64,000 nucleotides of DNA from Escherichia phage vB_EcoM_VR7. The notes under the pieces were generated by a model that was not told the origin of the DNA, did no database searches, and worked only from the letters and a program-made list of their open reading frames with translations. The first letter of the stretch is position 1. Each line of letters opens with the position of its first letter. The stretch lies in sequence record NC_014792.1; one strand, given 5' to 3'. The translations under genes were made by a program, and so were the position numbers. Positions 2,959 to 57,306 of this stretch are shown in pieces.

Positions 2959-3162
2959 CTACCAGCGTTTCCACCATTTTTTAAGCTGGTGTGAATCAAC
3001 CCACACCTTCGCTACTGGCTCAATCTGAAAAATACCGTCAGAATACTGGTCAATCATTTTGTATTCGGTTTCAGTCTGCTTAATACAGATATTACCATAT
3101 GAGCGAAGTCTGAAAGCGGCTCCAACAAGAAGCCGTTTAAAAGGTTTATTTACTAATGCCAT
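2959..3162 (-). CDS. Hypothetical protein
   Basis: 67-aa ORF in minus-strand tiling. Confidence 0.4.
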   Translation of the reverse strand: MALVNKPFKRLLVGAAFRLRSYGNICIKQTETEYKMIDQYSDGIFQIEPVAKVWVDSHQLKKWWKRW

Positions 3163-3457
3163 TTACGATTTCCCAAATTTGCTTGCGAGTAGTTTCCCAC
3201 ATCAACTTAATCAGGTCTTCCGTAACTGGTTGGCGGTAAATTCCACGCAGTTTAACTAAAGCATATTTGTATGCTTCAAAATTGTTTTCCAGCACTGCCC
3301 CTTGAGCATGCTTATTCAGTCGTTCAATTTCACGAGCATTCTTTTTCAGAATCTTTGCTGCTTGGATGGTTGCTTCGAGTGCGTTCGCTTCTTCGAGACG
3401 TTCCTGTGCTTCTTCAATCTGCTTATCGGTCAGTTGAGAAATATCTGGAGCTTGCAT
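3146..3457 (-). CDS. Hypothetical protein (helical)
   Basis: 103-aa ORF, minus-strand tiling. Confidence 0.5.
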   Translation of the reverse strand: MQAPDISQLTDKQIEEAQERLEEANALEATIQAAKILKKNAREIERLNKHAQGAVLENNFEAYKYALVKLRGIYRQPVTEDLIKLMWETTRKQIWEIVNGISK

Positions 3458-10466: not shown

Positions 10467-10740
10467 ATCGGTGTTTACAATGTCTGCATTTATATTGAAG
10501 CGGAGAGCTACGCCAATAAGTCAATTGGACCTGTTCAGTTCCACATTCAGGGCAGTTCGGAACGTTTTTAGAAGCTTGTTCACGTCGTTCGACAATTTTA
10601 ATAATCGCATTCCAATCAGGAATATCTTGACTATAATCATCACAACCGTGAATCTTACCAATCAATTCGGCTCCTTTAATAAAGTTCAATAAACCTGTAT
10701 TAGATGCTGAAGCAATGTCTTCTCTTAAACGTTGTTTCAT
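10438..10740 (-). CDS. Hypothetical zinc-ribbon protein
   Basis: 100 aa; CPECG...CRHCKH pairs. Confidence 0.45.
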
Positions 10741-11729
10741 TTCAGCAGCTCCAGAGCCTGTTCCAGTTTATCCAGACGATTGGTTGATTCTTCCCAAAGT
10801 CGCTTGGCTTTTGTATAATCTTCAGTTGCCTTTTTATTAACAGCAAGAGCTTCATTATACGCTGTTTCCAGGGCAACAATTTCAGGCGCTTTTTGTTTCA
10901 CTGGCTCATTATTCAGATTATCAATCAGGTCTTCAAGGGTAGTAACTTCTTGCGGTGCATTCATAATTTCCTCACTTTTCTTTTTATAGATTTCTGCATC
11001 AGTTGGCTGCTTTGCGCATTTAACTTCGCGTAATGTCACCACAATTTTCCAACCTTTCCAACCATGAGAACTGGTGATAGGGTCAACTTTAATTTTTTCA
11101 ACAGTGCGCATATAATTAAGTGCACACTGCAGCTGATGAGTGAGCGTGCATGCAACATCAAGATACTTTTTGATATTTTCAGGTGTAGCCTCTGGAGTAT
11201 AGAACTCATGCTTAACTGTAATAATTACCTGATTTTCACCAGAATCTTTAACCTTTACCATGTTCTCAGCCAGATGGTAGATAGTGCGAAAATCACCGCC
11301 CATCAATTTTGTTGCTGATTTTATGATAGACATTTTGTTATTTCTGAATTCACGCGCCCAACTGTTTGCAAATTCAGAAACAGTATAGCCTTGTTTATCA
11401 AGATAGTATTTTTCAACATCACCAAACCAATGATACCCAATTGTACCTTTACCACGTCTGGATTCAACACCAAACTTATTAAGAAGGTCTTTATTAACCA
11501 GGCATGCCAGGACTCGGGAACCTTTAAAAGTTTTCTTGATATCAGCATTACCAGCACGACTCGCAATAGTCGCGATGTCTTTCTTAAAACGACCGGATGC
11601 AACAATCGATGCGTCAATCTGATTTAACCAGAAATTGATAATCGAAAGGATAGCCGATTCACCTATTAATGGTTTTACTTTTGCATCGATAGTGGTGTTA
11701 AAGGCCTGGATATATTCGTTACGTGTCAT
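10737..11729 (-). CDS. Hypothetical protein with C-terminal coiled coil
   Basis: 330 aa; heptad-like C-terminus ...[13 protein letters not shown]. Confidence 0.55.
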   Translation of the reverse strand: MTRNEYIQAFNTTIDAKVKPLIGESAILSIINFWLNQIDASIVASGRFKKDIATIASRAGNADIKKTFKGSRVLACLVNKDLLNKFGVESRRGKGTIGYHWFGDVEKYYLDKQGYTVSEFANSWAREFRNNKMSIIKSATKLMGGDFRTIYHLAENMVKVKDSGENQVIITVKHEFYTPEATPENIKKYLDVACTLTHQLQCALNYMRTVEKIKVDPITSSHGWKGWKIVVTLREVKCAKQPTDAEIYKKKSEEIMNAPQEVTTLEDLIDNLNNEPVKQKAPEIVALETAYNEALAVNKKATEDYTKAKRLWEESTNRLDKLEQALELLK

Positions 11730-11756
11730 AGTGTTCTCCTCATAAAGTAGGAATTC

Positions 11757-11786
11757 ATTATACTCCCTCCATCCTTGGAAGTAAAC
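11757..11786 (-). promoter_or_regulatory. Early-type promoter (GTTTAC, 18 nt, TATAAT)
   Basis: Minus sense GTTTACTTCCAAGGATGGAGGGAGTATAAT then GAGGAG RBS and ATG. Confidence 0.45.
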
Positions 11787-11787
11787 A

Positions 11788-12669
11788 TTATTTTAATGCT
11801 TTGATTGCAGCTTGCAATTTATTGCGTTGCGTTTCCATGTTCTTGATGCGATTCAGGACATCCTGGATACCCTTCTTCTCATCTTCAATCAGACCATTTA
11901 AGCGGTTGACTGATTCCTTGATAGCATCCGCATGATAGCTCTCAATAGGCTTCATTGTTGGGTTAAAGATTTCAAGAGAGCTGGATGGCTGGACATTCCA
12001 TTTGTACATATTTTTAACGTCCAGTGGTGAAATTTTGGTCTGGTCATAAGATTTAAATTGACCTGCAAATGCTGGGCCATATGCCGCAGTAAGGGTACGT
12101 TCCATTTCTGGTTCCTTTTTCTCTTGATAAGGAGCATAAGACAAAAGATATTCTTTAGTTAATTTAATATCAATGGCTATAGTTTTAAGGAATTTTTCCG
12201 TTTGATGGATATAATTTGTATCTTCATCAAACGTGTATGATTCAACAGCATGGCGCATATAAAACAGCGCAATACCCATAACCTCTTTAAAGTTATGACA
12301 AAGAGCAACATCGCCCTTGGTGGTTGGTTTGAACTTAATCTGTACACCATCATTCTTGATATTAATAATCAAGTTATTGGAGTTGAAATTATAGTTCTTG
12401 ATGTTAATCGGAGCTTTGCGAATACGAAATCCGCCGGCCAGAATTTCCTTGATACTCTTACGAACCGTGGCACCAAACAAAAACGCTGGGCGGCGGCAAT
12501 AATCATTCAGAGAGTTAATTCTTACAATACGTTGGCCATACCCCTGGGTAGCAGAACCTGATTTGATTTTACCAAAGTTAACCAAAGAATTCATTGCGAT
12601 AAGACGAGCCACACGACCGTCATGTGGTTCATAACTACTAGCATATTCAGCGCGAGTTTTAATTTTCAT
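11788..12669 (-). CDS. Hypothetical protein with C-terminal coiled coil
   Basis: Track ORF 11788..12705 trimmed to Met at 12669 to avoid overlap; ends ...RNKLQAAIKALK. Confidence 0.5.
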   Translation of the reverse strand: MKIKTRAEYASSYEPHDGRVARLIAMNSLVNFGKIKSGSATQGYGQRIVRINSLNDYCRRPAFLFGATVRKSIKEILAGGFRIRKAPINIKNYNFNSNNLIINIKNDGVQIKFKPTTKGDVALCHNFKEVMGIALFYMRHAVESYTFDEDTNYIHQTEKFLKTIAIDIKLTKEYLLSYAPYQEKKEPEMERTLTAAYGPAFAGQFKSYDQTKISPLDVKNMYKWNVQPSSSLEIFNPTMKPIESYHADAIKESVNRLNGLIEDEKKGIQDVLNRIKNMETQRNKLQAAIKALK

Positions 12670-12670
12670 A

Positions 12671-12886
12671 TCATAGTCCAAATAATTTTTCATAGAGTTT
12701 AGCAAAAGGCCAGGTCACACACATTATAACAGCGATTATCCAAAACACAGGCCATACGAATGTTGTGAACACTGCATCATACTCGTCCCCACTTTCGTAG
12801 GGACTATCAAACTTGTGGAGCAACAGGGTAGTAATAAATCCCGTCAAAAGATAACCAAAAATAATACTGATAATCAAAATGGTCAT
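12671..12886 (-). CDS. Hypothetical small membrane protein
   Basis: Track ORF 12671..12907 trimmed; two hydrophobic helices. Confidence 0.35.
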   Translation of the reverse strand: MTILIISIIFGYLLTGFITTLLLHKFDSPYESGDEYDAVFTTFVWPVFWIIAVIMCVTWPFAKLYEKLFGL

Positions 12887-12887
12887 A

Positions 12888-13736
12888 TTAATCCTTAAGC
12901 AATTCAATAACGTTCATTAGTTTTTGACGTTCAGCTTTTGCTGCACTGTTCAGTCCTGACAGGCGGAAAATTTCATCATCTTGTTGCTGGATGGTGATGT
13001 TAAGTTCTTCAATCTGTTTAGTGAAAAGCTCAATTTGCTCTGAATATTTTTCATTGCTTCGCACTGGAACAGGTTCCATTTTAGGAGCTTGTTCTGAAGG
13101 ACTCTCAACTACAACTCGGTCTTTAATTTGGCATAATTTAATACGCTGGACGCCTCCAGTTTTAACATCATAGAAGGTAAGAACCCCATGATGTTCGAGT
13201 TCAGACAATGCCAAACGGAGGTGGAATTTCCAGTTTTCGTATTGACATCCGCTAAAAGAAGAAATACTGTATTCGCCTTCATTTTGACCTTTAATAACAT
13301 TAAATAGTTTGTAATCTAAAGAATTATTGGTTTTAAAGGTCATTTGTTTATCTTGACCGCTTGCTAAACGAGCACCAAGAGCTAATAAACGTCGTTGGTT
13401 AGTATGAAGGTCTTTGACCACTTCATCAAATGTCATGGTGCTAATCGCACGACCATAAAGGTCATAACCTTTATTATAATTTTTAAGTAAAATTTTGGCA
13501 TTAGCACGAGACAACATACCCGAACGTTGAAGAGATTTCATGACTCGGTCTTCTAATGTAAGCAAGCCCGTTGTTTTATTAAAGATTTTAGTGAATTCAG
13601 CAGAATTAGTACAAACATTGAACTTATTCCACATCATATATAAAACATTTAAAACCACATCTTTAGTGCTCGGAATACTGTTAAATTTAACAACTTTTTT
13701 AACTTCAGAACGAATTTCATTAATTGCTTGTGACAT
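12888..13736 (-). CDS. Hypothetical protein with C-terminal coiled coil
   Basis: 282 aa; ends ...ERQKLMNVIELLKD. Confidence 0.55.
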   Translation of the reverse strand: MSQAINEIRSEVKKVVKFNSIPSTKDVVLNVLYMMWNKFNVCTNSAEFTKIFNKTTGLLTLEDRVMKSLQRSGMLSRANAKILLKNYNKGYDLYGRAISTMTFDEVVKDLHTNQRRLLALGARLASGQDKQMTFKTNNSLDYKLFNVIKGQNEGEYSISSFSGCQYENWKFHLRLALSELEHHGVLTFYDVKTGGVQRIKLCQIKDRVVVESPSEQAPKMEPVPVRSNEKYSEQIELFTKQIEELNITIQQQDDEIFRLSGLNSAAKAERQKLMNVIELLKD

Positions 13737-13774
13737 ATTATTTTCCTCAATAGATTAATCAAAGGTCAGAACCA

Positions 13775-13798
13775 TTATACCATCCTTGGTATAAAGCG
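13775..13798 (-). promoter_or_regulatory. Middle-type promoter (MotA-box-like CGCTTTA, 12 nt, TATAAT)
   Basis: Minus sense CGCTTTATACCAAGGATGGTATAAT; AGGA-centred inverted repeat in spacer. Confidence 0.45.
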
Positions 13799-13799
13799 T

Positions 13800-14324
13800 T
13801 TATGCGAGAACCGTCTTTAAACGCTCTTCAAACTTCTGAAGGAGTACCTGGCGCTCTGCTCTTTGTTTGGTATAGGTTTCAATACGCTCTGAAGTGAGAT
13901 TGTATTGTTCATTAACTGATTCCCGCATGAATTCAGGAATCTCTTTACATGCTTTGATTTCATTGAACTTATCAAGCACTGCTTGATGTTCAGCAATCAG
14001 ACCATCATAATATTGGATATCTGATTTGATGTTCTGTACATCAGATTCAGTTGGCATATTTTTCTTTACTCTTGCCGCTTGATACTCAGCATTAGTCTCT
14101 CTTGACCAGAACAAAGAGCGGTTTTTGTTAGTGTTTTTATACACATCAATAATACCAACTGAATCAACATTCACAATCCAGTTCCAGGCGTTTTTATAAG
14201 TTTGACCACCTGATACTGTAATCTCACCTGCACAAGCAACATCATTAAAGAACTTGCTTTGTGCTTCTGATTTAAAATTACCATTATTGTAATTAATCAG
14301 ATTAAAGATTGATTTGGCTTCCAT
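13800..14324 (-). CDS. Hypothetical protein with C-terminal coiled coil
   Basis: 174 aa; ends ...LLQKFEERLKTVLA. Confidence 0.55.
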   Translation of the reverse strand: MEAKSIFNLINYNNGNFKSEAQSKFFNDVACAGEITVSGGQTYKNAWNWIVNVDSVGIIDVYKNTNKNRSLFWSRETNAEYQAARVKKNMPTESDVQNIKSDIQYYDGLIAEHQAVLDKFNEIKACKEIPEFMRESVNEQYNLTSERIETYTKQRAERQVLLQKFEERLKTVLA

Positions 14325-14358: not shown

Positions 14359-14388
14359 ATTATACGTCTATCCCATACTGATGTACAC
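14359..14388 (-). promoter_or_regulatory. Early promoter-leader cassette (GTGTACA ... TATAAT ... ACTGAGTTACCAAA ... GGAGAA)
   Basis: Minus sense GTGTACATCAGTATGGGATAGACGTATAATGTTCCCATACTGAGTTACC. Confidence 0.5.
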
Positions 14389-14699: not shown

Positions 14700-14906
14700 T
14701 CACTTGCGACGGCGTTTTGGTAATGGTTTAGGGAAGAACATTGCTTTACCTGCAGGGGTCAAAGTCACACGCAAAGCATTACCAATACCAAGGGATGCTT
14801 TAACCAGACCTTTGGCTTTTAACTCACCAAATGCTTGACGTTGTTCAGGGTCACGAGTGTTAACCATCAGACCTTTTTCACCAGCAGCTTTGATTAATTC
14901 TAACAT
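14700..14906 (-). CDS. Hypothetical basic protein
   Basis: Track ORF 14700..14975 trimmed: its N-terminus is translated promoter/leader; ATG at 14906 follows GGAGAA RBS. Confidence 0.5.
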   Translation of the reverse strand: MLELIKAAGEKGLMVNTRDPEQRQAFGELKAKGLVKASLGIGNALRVTLTPAGKAMFFPKPLPKRRRK

Positions 14907-14946
14907 TTTATTCTCCAGTTTTATTTGGTAACTCAGTATGGAATCA

Positions 14947-14975
14947 TTATGCCTCATGACCATCTGGTTGTACAC
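14947..14975 (-). promoter_or_regulatory. Early promoter-leader cassette
   Basis: Minus sense GTGTACAACCAGATGGTCATGAGGCATAATGATTCCATACTGAGTTACC. Confidence 0.5.
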
Positions 14976-14987
14976 TACTTTTTAAAA

Positions 14988-15010
14988 TAAAAAAGGACCC
15001 CGAAGGGTCC
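14988..15010 (-). terminator. Rho-independent terminator (GGACCC-TTCG-GGGTCC + U-run)
   Basis: Perfect hairpin 14995-15010 with A-run on plus side (U-run for minus transcript), directly after 15017..15313. Confidence 0.55.
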
Positions 15011-15016
15011 TTTGTA

Positions 15017-15313
15017 TTATTTCTTACAACCAACATATTTTGGCATATGACAGAAAACAGAATCGGTAACTACTCGACCCTTTGCCCATGCTTCCTGTGC
15101 TTTACCGTGAGTAGTATTCACATAGCTGGATTTAATATTCTCAATACCTTGAGAATGTGATGCGTGTGCAGAACCATTAGAAGGACCTGCTGACTGACTT
15201 GAACTTTGACCGCCGGTGGAACCACCAGGGCCTGATGTGCCTTCAGTAGCCAGTACACCAAAAGACATAACAGCGGCCAACAGGCCTATAGCCACTTTTA
15301 ATTTTAATTTCAT
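15017..15313 (-). CDS. Secreted Gly/Ser-rich small protein
   Basis: 98 aa; signal-peptide-like MKLKLKVAIGLLAAVMSFGVLA then low-complexity G/S/Q region. Confidence 0.5.
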   Translation of the reverse strand: MKLKLKVAIGLLAAVMSFGVLATEGTSGPGGSTGGQSSSQSAGPSNGSAHASHSQGIENIKSSYVNTTHGKAQEAWAKGRVVTDSVFCHMPKYVGCKK

Positions 15314-37499: not shown

Positions 37500-38189
<690 letters not shown>

Positions 38190-38190
<1 letters not shown>

Positions 38191-55719: not shown

Positions 55720-57306
55720 ATGATTAACAAATTAGAATTAGCGAATCTTCCGTTTGTCGATGGTGTACCAGAACCTGACCAGAAACGAATTGAATGGATT
55801 CGCAACGGTGATTGCTTAACTGCAGCCACTACCAAATACGGGCACGATGGTGCCCTTAATGCTGCAGCTTTGGGTGTGCAGACCAACGTTGAAACTCTGG
55901 AAAAGAATGACGCGACCACTAAAGACAAAGTAAACGAAATTGTCGATAGCGTTAACCAGATTAAAGAAGCTCTGGATATTTCTACAGATGCAAGCGTTAT
56001 TCAACAGATTGAAACCAACCGTATTAATATTGTAAGCCTCCAGACAGGATTAGCTGAAACTGATATTGCTTTACTTGATACCAGTACAAATCTCGGTGAA
56101 TTACAGGAAGATGTTGGTTATTATAACCCACTGGAAGATGGACCATATTTGACCGTACGCGCCAATATTAATCGCATTAAGCGCGAAATGGGCCATTATG
56201 CGAACCAAGATATCAACGGTGACCCATTGCCTGAAGGTGAAACTAATGATGCCACCGGGATGAAACGTATTATCATCGATAACAGTACAGCAATTGCAAC
56301 CACGCAACATCGTCTTACTGTTCTCGAAGATAATTATAATGATTCGGATGTTGGTGGCCTCACGATTAAATTAAATGAGATGCGCGAAGAACTTGGTCCT
56401 CGCACTGAAGGTATTGGTAAATCTCCTGTTTATACTCGTTTAACTGCAGTCGAAGCTAAAGCGGAAACTAATGAAACTGATGTAAGCAATATCAAAGCCG
56501 CAATTGGTTTTGACCAAGGACAAAGTATTGCAAACCGTGTTGGGACTCTGGAAACCAAGGCAACAAATTTAGAAAATACCACATCTGCTATGAATACAAG
56601 ATTGTCAACGGTTGAAACTGATATTGGCACTGATGCCGAACCTACTTCAATTAATGGTCGTCTAAAAACGTTGCGTGACGATATGACAGGTGTTCGTGTT
56701 GTTATCGGGGAAAATACAAGCAGTGGTTTGCAAGGACAAGTTGTTGCCCTTAACGTTGCAGTAGGTATTAGCGATAGCCCGGCGCCAACTTCCTTGATTC
56801 CGCGTATGCGTGAAGTCGAAACTTCTAGTCGCGCAAATGCCGCGGCTATTCAGGATATTCAGGCCGAAATTGGTAACAATCAGTCAGGCATCAAAGGTTC
56901 TATCCTGACGATTAAATCACAAATCGACGGGACCAACCCGAACGGTTCTACGGTTGTTGAAAAAGGTATTCTTCCGACTGTTGAAACTCTTAACAACGAA
57001 ATGCCTACCAAAATTAGTGATGCTCCATCTGATACGAAGATATATGGTCGCCGTGATGCAGCATGGGTAGAAATCGCTACAGGCGGTGATGTATCTGCTC
57101 TGACATTGCGTGTGGATGGTATCGAAACGCGCACCGGTGAAGCCGAGACGAAGATAACTGAACTAGAAGGTAAAGTATCAGCCCTAGAAACAGAGCTCTC
57201 CAAAAGGCCTCCTGTCGCTCCTGCGGCTGATGGTCTTCCTTATGTACTTGTTGATAATGCATGGGTTCTTTTGTCTACATTTGTGACATTAAATCCAGTG
57301 CCATAA
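55720..57306 (+). CDS. wac: Fibritin (whisker antigen control)
   Basis: 528 aa; N-terminal LPFVDG...; coiled-coil repeats; C-terminal ...AWVLLSTF foldon-like end. Confidence 0.85.
   Translation: MINKLELANLPFVDGVPEPDQKRIEWIRNGDCLTAATTKYGHDGALNAAALGVQTNVETLEKNDATTKDKVNEIVDSVNQIKEALDISTDASVIQQIETNRINIVSLQTGLAETDIALLDTSTNLGELQEDVGYYNPLEDGPYLTVRANINRIKREMGHYANQDINGDPLPEGETNDATGMKRIIIDNSTAIATTQHRLTVLEDNYNDSDVGGLTIKLNEMREELGPRTEGIGKSPVYTRLTAVEAKAETNETDVSNIKAAIGFDQGQSIANRVGTLETKATNLENTTSAMNTRLSTVETDIGTDAEPTSINGRLKTLRDDMTGVRVVIGENTSSGLQGQVVALNVAVGISDSPAPTSLIPRMREVETSSRANAAAIQDIQAEIGNNQSGIKGSILTIKSQIDGTNPNGSTVVEKGILPTVETLNNEMPTKISDAPSDTKIYGRRDAAWVEIATGGDVSALTLRVDGIETRTGEAETKITELEGKVSALETELSKRPPVAPAADGLPYVLVDNAWVLLSTFVTLNPVP

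Follow-up and report, generated by a model that had tools for sequence, protein, structure and literature searches.

T4-like phages carry many early genes without an assigned function, and the nrdC region is among the hypervariable blocks thought to set host range. Genes of this region have been catalogued (Pfam DUFs, PHROGs), and for one of them, T4 nrdC.5, an anti-defence phenotype has been published. An evolved, deletion-bearing T4 clone no longer plated on cells with ECOR17 dsr1, the gene of a defence-associated sirtuin, and expression of T4 nrdC.5 restored plating (Srikant, Guegler and Laub, eLife 2022, PMC9391042). The rescue is purely genetic (PMC9391042). A 2026 preprint, which gives WP_029488749.1 as the accession of EcDsr1, reports that Dsr1 senses major capsid proteins of phages through its TPR part (PMC12803255). 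Our literature search returned no paper on DUF7235, PF26897, PF26899 or an anti-Dsr1 mechanism. Here, we analysed a 64,000-nucleotide stretch of Escherichia phage vB_EcoM_VR7 (NC_014792.1, hereafter the window), in which four adjacent early genes, called A, B, C and D, all lie on the minus strand between nrdC and mobD. Searches with BLASTP against the T4 proteins and with tblastn assign them to NrdC.4, NrdC.5, NrdC.6 and NrdC.8, respectively. A sequence-only reading of the window had taken all four genes to be early genes with a promoter each and a C-terminal coiled coil, as would fit a modular host-interaction family. We find that A, B and C are whole-gene paralogs rather than a module shuffled onto unrelated heads, and we put a probability of roughly 0.6 on their being diverged tandem paralogs of a T4-like-phage family (NrdC.3, NrdC.4, NrdC.5 and NrdC.6) of early or middle counter-defence proteins. 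As far as the literature search shows, two points are new: the unification of these four as one superfamily, and its defining coiled coil, which is strongly conserved and anchored at the C-terminus.

Results

Pairwise BLASTP among A, B, C and D gave nothing significant, and profiles and structures were needed to relate the proteins. On a BLASTP level, A matches the head of T4 NrdC.3 (E 7e-8). Profile comparison with hhalign aligns NrdC.3 with NrdC.4 (probability 98%, E 3e-14) and the B family with the T4 NrdC.5 group (99.6%). NrdC.4 against T4 NrdC.5 reaches a probability of 61%, and the merged NrdC.3 and NrdC.4 profile against the merged NrdC.5 profile reaches 92% (E 6.5e-7, 232 columns), in an alignment that starts at residue 74 of A and extends to the end of both proteins.

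For C, the relationship was seen in predicted structures. The AlphaFold2 (AF2) models of A and C show one succession of elements: a group of five to six helices at the N-terminus is followed by two more helices, then by a long helix with a beta-hairpin on either side, a disordered linker and a terminal helix. A Foldseek search of BFVD with the A model gave 17 matches at E 1e-3 or better, all of them uncharacterised T4-like phage proteins, mostly of 300-380 residues and a few shorter, including an NrdC.6-family protein of Shigella phage Sf25 (E 2.6e-5). The C model finds the same proteins in Pectobacterium phage PM2, Acinetobacter phages fHyAci03 and Acj61, Yersinia phage fHe-Yen9-01 and Sf25, and at least five BFVD matches at E<1e-3, T4-like phage proteins of ~300-380 residues, are common to both models. 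By predicted structure, A and C are in one structural superfamily. Given that the A and B profiles align and that the A and C models and their Foldseek matches agree, A, B and C are paralogs over the whole gene. The sequence-only reading had found the N-terminal domains not obviously alike, had read them as different effector domains and had proposed structure prediction as a check; the profile alignment of A with B and the same succession of elements in A and C speak against different effector domains.

The same architecture is found in another subfamily. In Acinetobacter phage Acj61, the adjacent genes Acj61p120 and Acj61p121 lie downstream of nrdC, and a C-terminal coiled coil is predicted for both products, whose terminal motif is looser. 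Hence, the arrangement of head, linker and coiled-coil tail is old and family-defining. An early location downstream of nrdC is common to the window, RZ, EAWsc9, T4, T6, Manna, IME281, ST0, Acj61 and KPV15.

Coiled coils were predicted with a COILS-type scan (MTIDK matrix, segments counted at P>0.5), which gave P 1.0 for GCN4 and tropomyosin and 0.02 or less for T4 lysozyme and thioredoxin. Segments were found at residues 283-330 of A (maximal P 0.99), 263-305 of B in the numbering of a 305-residue product (0.999), 225-260 of C (0.999) and 145-172 of D (0.55, marginal). When the last 56 residues were shuffled with composition preserved, 3.3% (A), 0.4% (B), 0.8% (C) and 10.6% (D) of shuffles matched the observed score; A, B and C thus have a real heptad phase, and that of D is unproven (not significant). 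The coiled-coil C-termini first noticed in the sequence of four products are upheld in three, with a predicted AF2 helix in A and C as well, and D is marginal. Any predicted coiled coil occurs in 7 of 109 crudely called window genes, and in 4 of the 7, which are the adjacent A, B, C and D, it is C-terminal. The other three window coiled coils are non-C-terminal and lie at residues 7-52 of the product of 3146-3457 (minus), 7-44 of 37951-38190 (minus) and 464-495 of 55720-57306 (plus).

The tails of A, B and C are of one length class (~48-50 residues) and have the same register relative to the C-terminus. With the register anchored at the last residue, hydrophobic residues occupy nearly all a/d positions over six to seven heptads in A, B, C, T4 NrdC.3 and T4 NrdC.5. 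A terminal motif, L-x-x-[AV]-[IL]-x-x-L-K, closes A, B and C (the last residue is N in T4 NrdC.5) and is absent from D. The linker, the ~48-50-residue heptad helix and the terminal motif are also present in T4 NrdC.3, NrdC.4 and NrdC.5 and in T6 NrdC.6, and in the A tail W312, E313, E314, R318, L319, L322, E323, A325, L326, L328 and K330 are invariant in the family. AF2 predicts one long uninterrupted helix at A 282-329 and C 232-281, each behind a low-confidence (disordered) linker, and in these monomer models the tail is a lone exposed helix.

Charged helical C-termini could be alike by composition, with no common function and with adjacency by chance. Such generic tails would fit the weak tail-only hhalign comparisons (best cross-family E 5e-4, most >0.01), which on their own are no proof of homology, and coiled-coil composition inflates apparent similarity. 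Against this, all four C-terminal coiled-coil calls of 109 genes are adjacent, the heptad phase of A, B and C exceeds that of the shuffles, five paralog groups agree exactly in register and terminal motif when counted from the C-terminus, and the tail is kept in structural homologues as far as Acinetobacter phage Acj61. Many tail codon differences are purely synonymous, and selection therefore acts on the protein; this protein-level purifying selection also speaks against generic tails, which we regard as most improbable. Aligning the C-termini, as had been proposed, gives only weak similarity in tail-only profiles; what A, B and C do share is motif and register, and D stands outside. A DNA-level cause of the similar C-termini, in which the last codons would overlap the next promoter or an UP element, was rejected given the synonymous tail changes and given that the A tail overlaps no promoter, since the A stop overlaps the nrdC.2 start.

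In distant relatives, the identities place the tail as better conserved than the head: 81% against 27% in the homologue P0045, 77% against ~40% in Dhakavirus NrdC.4 and 71-75% against ~41% in T4-type NrdC.6. In parts of the NrdC.6 family the two are uncoupled, with head and tail identities of 73% and 96% in P0147 and of 80% and 65% in P0145. A natural exchange is seen in Salmonella phage Manna (locus L004, 5203-6240), in which a 345-residue in-frame fusion joins NrdC.6 from residue 1 to ~268 to NrdC.4 251-333 (linker and tail), with the crossover at ...DDEI/VNTP... and nrdC.5 deleted. The Manna chimera and the uncoupled identities indicate that the tails act as an interchangeable unit within the family.

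This exchange is also an argument for the modular family of the sequence-only reading, in which a common C-terminal oligomerisation or targeting module sits on unrelated effector domains, D included. Uncoupled head and tail identities (P0147, P0145) and a short AERQ-x-L stretch common to C and D (hhalign E 0.003, 12 columns) point the same way. However, A, B and C have heads that are homologous or of one fold, which largely refutes the modular family for these three; D has neither significant similarity nor significant heptad phase; and a hidden Markov model of the NrdC.4 family gave only 7 matches among 1.84 billion representative proteins, none with the tail on a foreign head. We therefore hold the modular family to be distinctly improbable. 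What survives of the shared module is a coiled-coil element of the same length class, register and motif in A, B and C, with D left out and the different effector domains gone.

Promoters are conserved together with the genes. The early-type promoter of A is kept in T4, T6, Dhakavirus and Gaprivervirus, the middle-type promoter of C is identical in Gaprivervirus and Dhakavirus and similar in Mosigvirus, and GTTTAC stands at the position of the D promoter in T4, T6, Dhakavirus and Mosigvirus. B has no promoter and no intergenic region of its own, which leaves three of the four genes (A, C and D) with promoters of their own, in line with the at least three first noted. The exact 10-mer CCAAGGATGG has two copies in the 64 kb (minus strand, 11769-11778 and 13780-13789), in the spacers of the A and C promoters; the A copy lies between the -35 and -10 hexamers, the C copy between the MotA-like box and the -10 hexamer. 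In T4 the nrdC.3 promoter has the motif too, as do the promoters of nrdC.3 and nrdC.5 in ST0. A motif common to A, C and related nrdC promoters indicates that promoter and gene were probably copied together as a unit. A role beyond that of a leftover from the copying, such as a regulatory site, is conceivable for CCAAGGATGG.

The number of family copies varies between close relatives: four in T4 and T6, three in this window, IME281 and ST0, two in Manna (one being the in-frame NrdC.6-NrdC.4 chimera) and a split copy in KPV15. Individual phages have copies that are frameshifted, split, internally duplicated or fused. T4 NrdC.6 is annotated with 275 residues and ends in ...IFLFNNMMMKFSDYLD (locus L003, T4 AF158101, 4523-5420), and in another frame the T4 DNA between the nrdC.6 stop and nrdC.5 still encodes the canonical tail (...SSKAKSEREKLIKIVDLLKS). 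An intact NrdC.6 of 295-296 residues is present in T6 and others; judged from these reading frames, the T4 reference nrdC.6 looks frameshifted. Variable copy number together with broken copies is a pattern typical of accessory host-range genes.

Two further rearrangements were observed. The NrdC.6 homologue of Shigella phage Sf25 (P0182, 378 residues) contains an internal tandem duplication of ~83 residues (IRAHSTDYVNMG...NKQIEEL twice). In Klebsiella phage KPV15 (locus L010, 14666-15639, minus), overlapping open reading frames (ORFs) of 149 and 175 residues lie just past an annotated thioredoxin gene; one encodes a helical head and the other the alpha/beta part with a coiled-coil tail at 127-170, and the pair look like a split family member.

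The homologous heads that unite A, B and C in the proposed NrdC.3-NrdC.6 superfamily do not extend to D, which has no hhalign profile similarity to A, B or C. Its weak match to UvsY (E 0.018) is below the cut-off. D is, as far as such comparisons can detect, an unrelated early neighbour, with a helical C-terminus that is only superficially tail-like. A truncated family member was considered for D and rejected, because the 175-residue KPV15 protein that the C model retrieves is not NrdC.8-like and represents the C-terminal half of a split member. In the DRT1 paper nrdC.8 is treated as a nucleotide reductase, by name only.

The coordinates of all features are given in Table 1. Coordinates, products, quoted C-terminal strings and the common minus strand agree with the sequence-only reading, with B taken as 293 residues from ATG 12669; the mechanical ORF from TTG 12705 has 305 residues, and 293 matches the length of the B homologues. 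The related records belong to Gaprivervirus (Straboviridae, Tevenvirinae), T4-like coliphages, and Escherichia phage vB_EcoM_VR25 is 98% identical to the window across the four-gene stretch. In a Pfam search, the only real match was of B to PF23882 (DUF7235; 419.7 bits, E 1e-125, model positions 1-307, gathering score 30 bits), and PF23882 did not match A, C or D. T4 NrdC.5 is a full-length member like B (420.6 bits, E 5e-126).

Table 1 Features of the four-gene stretch between nrdC and mobD (nucleotide positions in the window; residues for protein parts).
Feature	Position	Strand	Description
Gene A	10737..11729	minus	330 residues; T4 NrdC.4 homologue, 49% identity; PF26897 (precomputed Pfam family)
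A tail	10740..10886	minus	Residues 282-330; COILS-type P, shuffle p = 0.033, AF2 single helix
A protein parts	head 1-240; linker ~241-281; C-terminal helix 282-329		AF2 model, predicted local distance difference test (pLDDT) 82.5
A promoter, early type	11757..11785	minus	GTTTAC-17-TATAAT (T4 early type); spacer has CCAAGGATGG at 11769-11778
Gene B	11788..12669	minus	293 residues from ATG 12669; NrdC.5 family / Pfam DUF7235; T4 NrdC.5 28% identity, E 2e-24
B tail	11791..11940	minus	Last 50 codons; shuffle p = 0.004; nearly invariant in NrdC.5 family
71-residue ORF	12671..12886	minus	Two hydrophobic segments; between C and B; annotated as transmembrane-helix protein in phage EAWsc9
Gene C	12888..13736	minus	282 residues; T4/T6 nrdC.6 homologue, 49% identical to T4 NrdC.6; PF26899 (precomputed Pfam family)
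C tail	12891..13043	minus	Residues 232-282; shuffle p = 0.008; a/d hydrophobic pattern from C-terminus
C protein parts	head 1-205; disordered linker 207-228; helix 232-281		AF2 model, pLDDT 80.6
C promoter, middle type	13774..13799	minus	MotA-box-like ACGCTTTA 13799-13792, 12 nt with CCAAGGATGG, TATAAT 13779-13774
Gene D	13800..14324	minus	174 residues; T4 nrdC.8 homologue, 66% identity; phrog_2274
D promoter, early type	14359..14387	minus	TGTACA-17-TATAAT

The 71-residue ORF starts 1 nt past the C stop and ends 1 nt before the B start, and because of these single-base gaps C, the ORF and B look translationally coupled. T4 lacks an ORF there; instead, a 133-residue membrane protein, NrdC.7, is encoded upstream of nrdC.6. 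The four genes are flanked by NrdC.2 and NrdC.1 on the downstream side of A and by NrdC.9 on the upstream side of D. nrdC.10 is absent from the window between nrdC.9 and nrdC.11. Elsewhere, NrdC.10 ends in ...EVTLLK, ...ETVLLK or ...EVTMLK (T6, Manna, IME281, ST0 and KPV15) and in T4 in ...TGYSSEINS, which may be another C-terminal frameshift in the T4 reference.

A GC-rich hairpin with a perfect 9-bp stem, AAAGGACCC-TTCG-GGGTCCTTT, lies at 14992-15013 between a 98-residue ORF with a hydrophobic N-terminus (15017-15313) and a 91-residue ORF (14700-14975), and a T run follows it. It is the sole strong terminator-like site in the cluster. Homologues of NrdC.1 to NrdC.11 are commonly labelled thioredoxin in GenBank and UniRef records, a label that seems to have been propagated from the nrdC prefix of the gene names. 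The Pfam search gave no thioredoxin match for A, B, C or D.

Discussion

Since only one relative has a described phenotype, the counter-defence role proposed for A and C and the specificity of B are read from the NrdC.5 anti-Dsr1 effect, the DUF7235 membership common to T4 NrdC.5 and B, and the variable, accessory-type copy number. Under the tandem-paralog reading, duplication of a unit of promoter and gene would have given A, B and C. Each protein has a helical N-terminal subdomain, an alpha/beta subdomain in which three helices accompany two beta-hairpins, a disordered linker 20-40 residues long and an amphipathic C-terminal helix. Expressed early or in the middle period, these accessory proteins would neutralise host anti-phage immune proteins. 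The fast-diverging head would bind a particular host target, with heads diversified against different targets, and the conserved tail would oligomerise (as a homo- or hetero-oligomeric coiled coil) or dock to a common partner. The idea of a host-interaction family thus fits the anti-Dsr1 activity of T4 NrdC.5 (PMC9391042), with tandem paralogy taking the place of the modular make-up.

Several points weigh against the tandem-paralog reading. C is unlinked to A and B by sequence profiles (hhalign E 0.02-0.08), so that its link rests on predicted structures, and the template modelling scores for that link are 0.3-0.5, owing to the flexible linker. Tail surface positions are also strongly conserved, more than a plain homo-oligomeric zipper needs, which hints at another binding partner. 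The tested phenotype belongs to one family member, to which B is 28% identical. PADLOC, with its defence and anti-defence profiles, gave no matches for A, B, C or D, and a sequence search of the PDB found nothing for C and, for A, just designed helical repeats that are spurious.

In a non-defence role, the family would act on machinery of the host or the phage (nucleoid, RNA polymerase or replication) by regulation or remodelling, and the anti-Dsr1 effect would be indirect. The first 85 residues form an all-helical bundle and the Dsr1 rescue is genetic only (PMC9391042), both of which suit such a role. However, the genes are dispensable, variable in copy number and frameshifted or split in T4 nrdC.6 and KPV15, as is typical of host-range accessory genes and not of core regulators, and no DNA-binding family was matched in the Pfam search. 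On balance we consider a non-defence role unlikely.

A more far-reaching proposal is that NrdC.3-NrdC.6 are expandable blockers of immune sensors built on a tail-terminator-like core. Their heads might decoy or plug different sensors that recognise conserved virion folds (the Dsr1 TPR or Avs-type sensors), and the like tail length and register might allow one multi-headed hetero-oligomer. This proposal is very improbable.

If NrdC.3-NrdC.6 are one family with a fast-evolving head and a conserved coiled-coil tail, the anti-Dsr1 phenotype of NrdC.5 becomes a family-wide hypothesis that is cheap to test. The analysis also corrects automated annotation, given that NrdC-region proteins are widely mislabelled as thioredoxin.

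Among known systems, the tail terminator or completion proteins (lambda gpU, SPP1 gp17-like, DUF3168) have a simple alpha/beta sandwich fold, which is also matched by nitroreductases and RNA polymerase subunits. The helical head and coiled-coil tail of A and C are absent from terminators, and A, B and C belong to the early nrdC region, under early or middle promoters, not to the late structural module. DSAD1, a phage inhibitor of DSR2, is not known to have a C-terminal coiled coil. Its likeness to the family is conceptual, as a small phage protein that binds and blocks a SIR2-type NADase defence (PMC10981675, PMC11087589); its target is DSR2 rather than Dsr1 and its phage group is a different one.

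Further close systems are those of T4 itself. B shares with T4 NrdC.5 the Pfam family, the early position between nrdC and mobD and the architecture including the tail; it is only 28% identical to it, and A and C are remote paralogs of NrdC.5. T4 NrdC.3, NrdC.4 and NrdC.6 are conserved hypothetical proteins (PF26897 and PF26899). For T4 NrdC.4 and NrdC.6, A and C are direct homologues (49% each), with gene order and promoters conserved. The window differs from the T4 nrdC.3-nrdC.6 region in having no nrdC.3 copy and in the 71-residue membrane ORF between nrdC.6 and nrdC.5, compared with nrdC.7 upstream of nrdC.6 in T4. The tail of nrdC.6, which is out of frame in the T4 reference, is in frame in C of the window.

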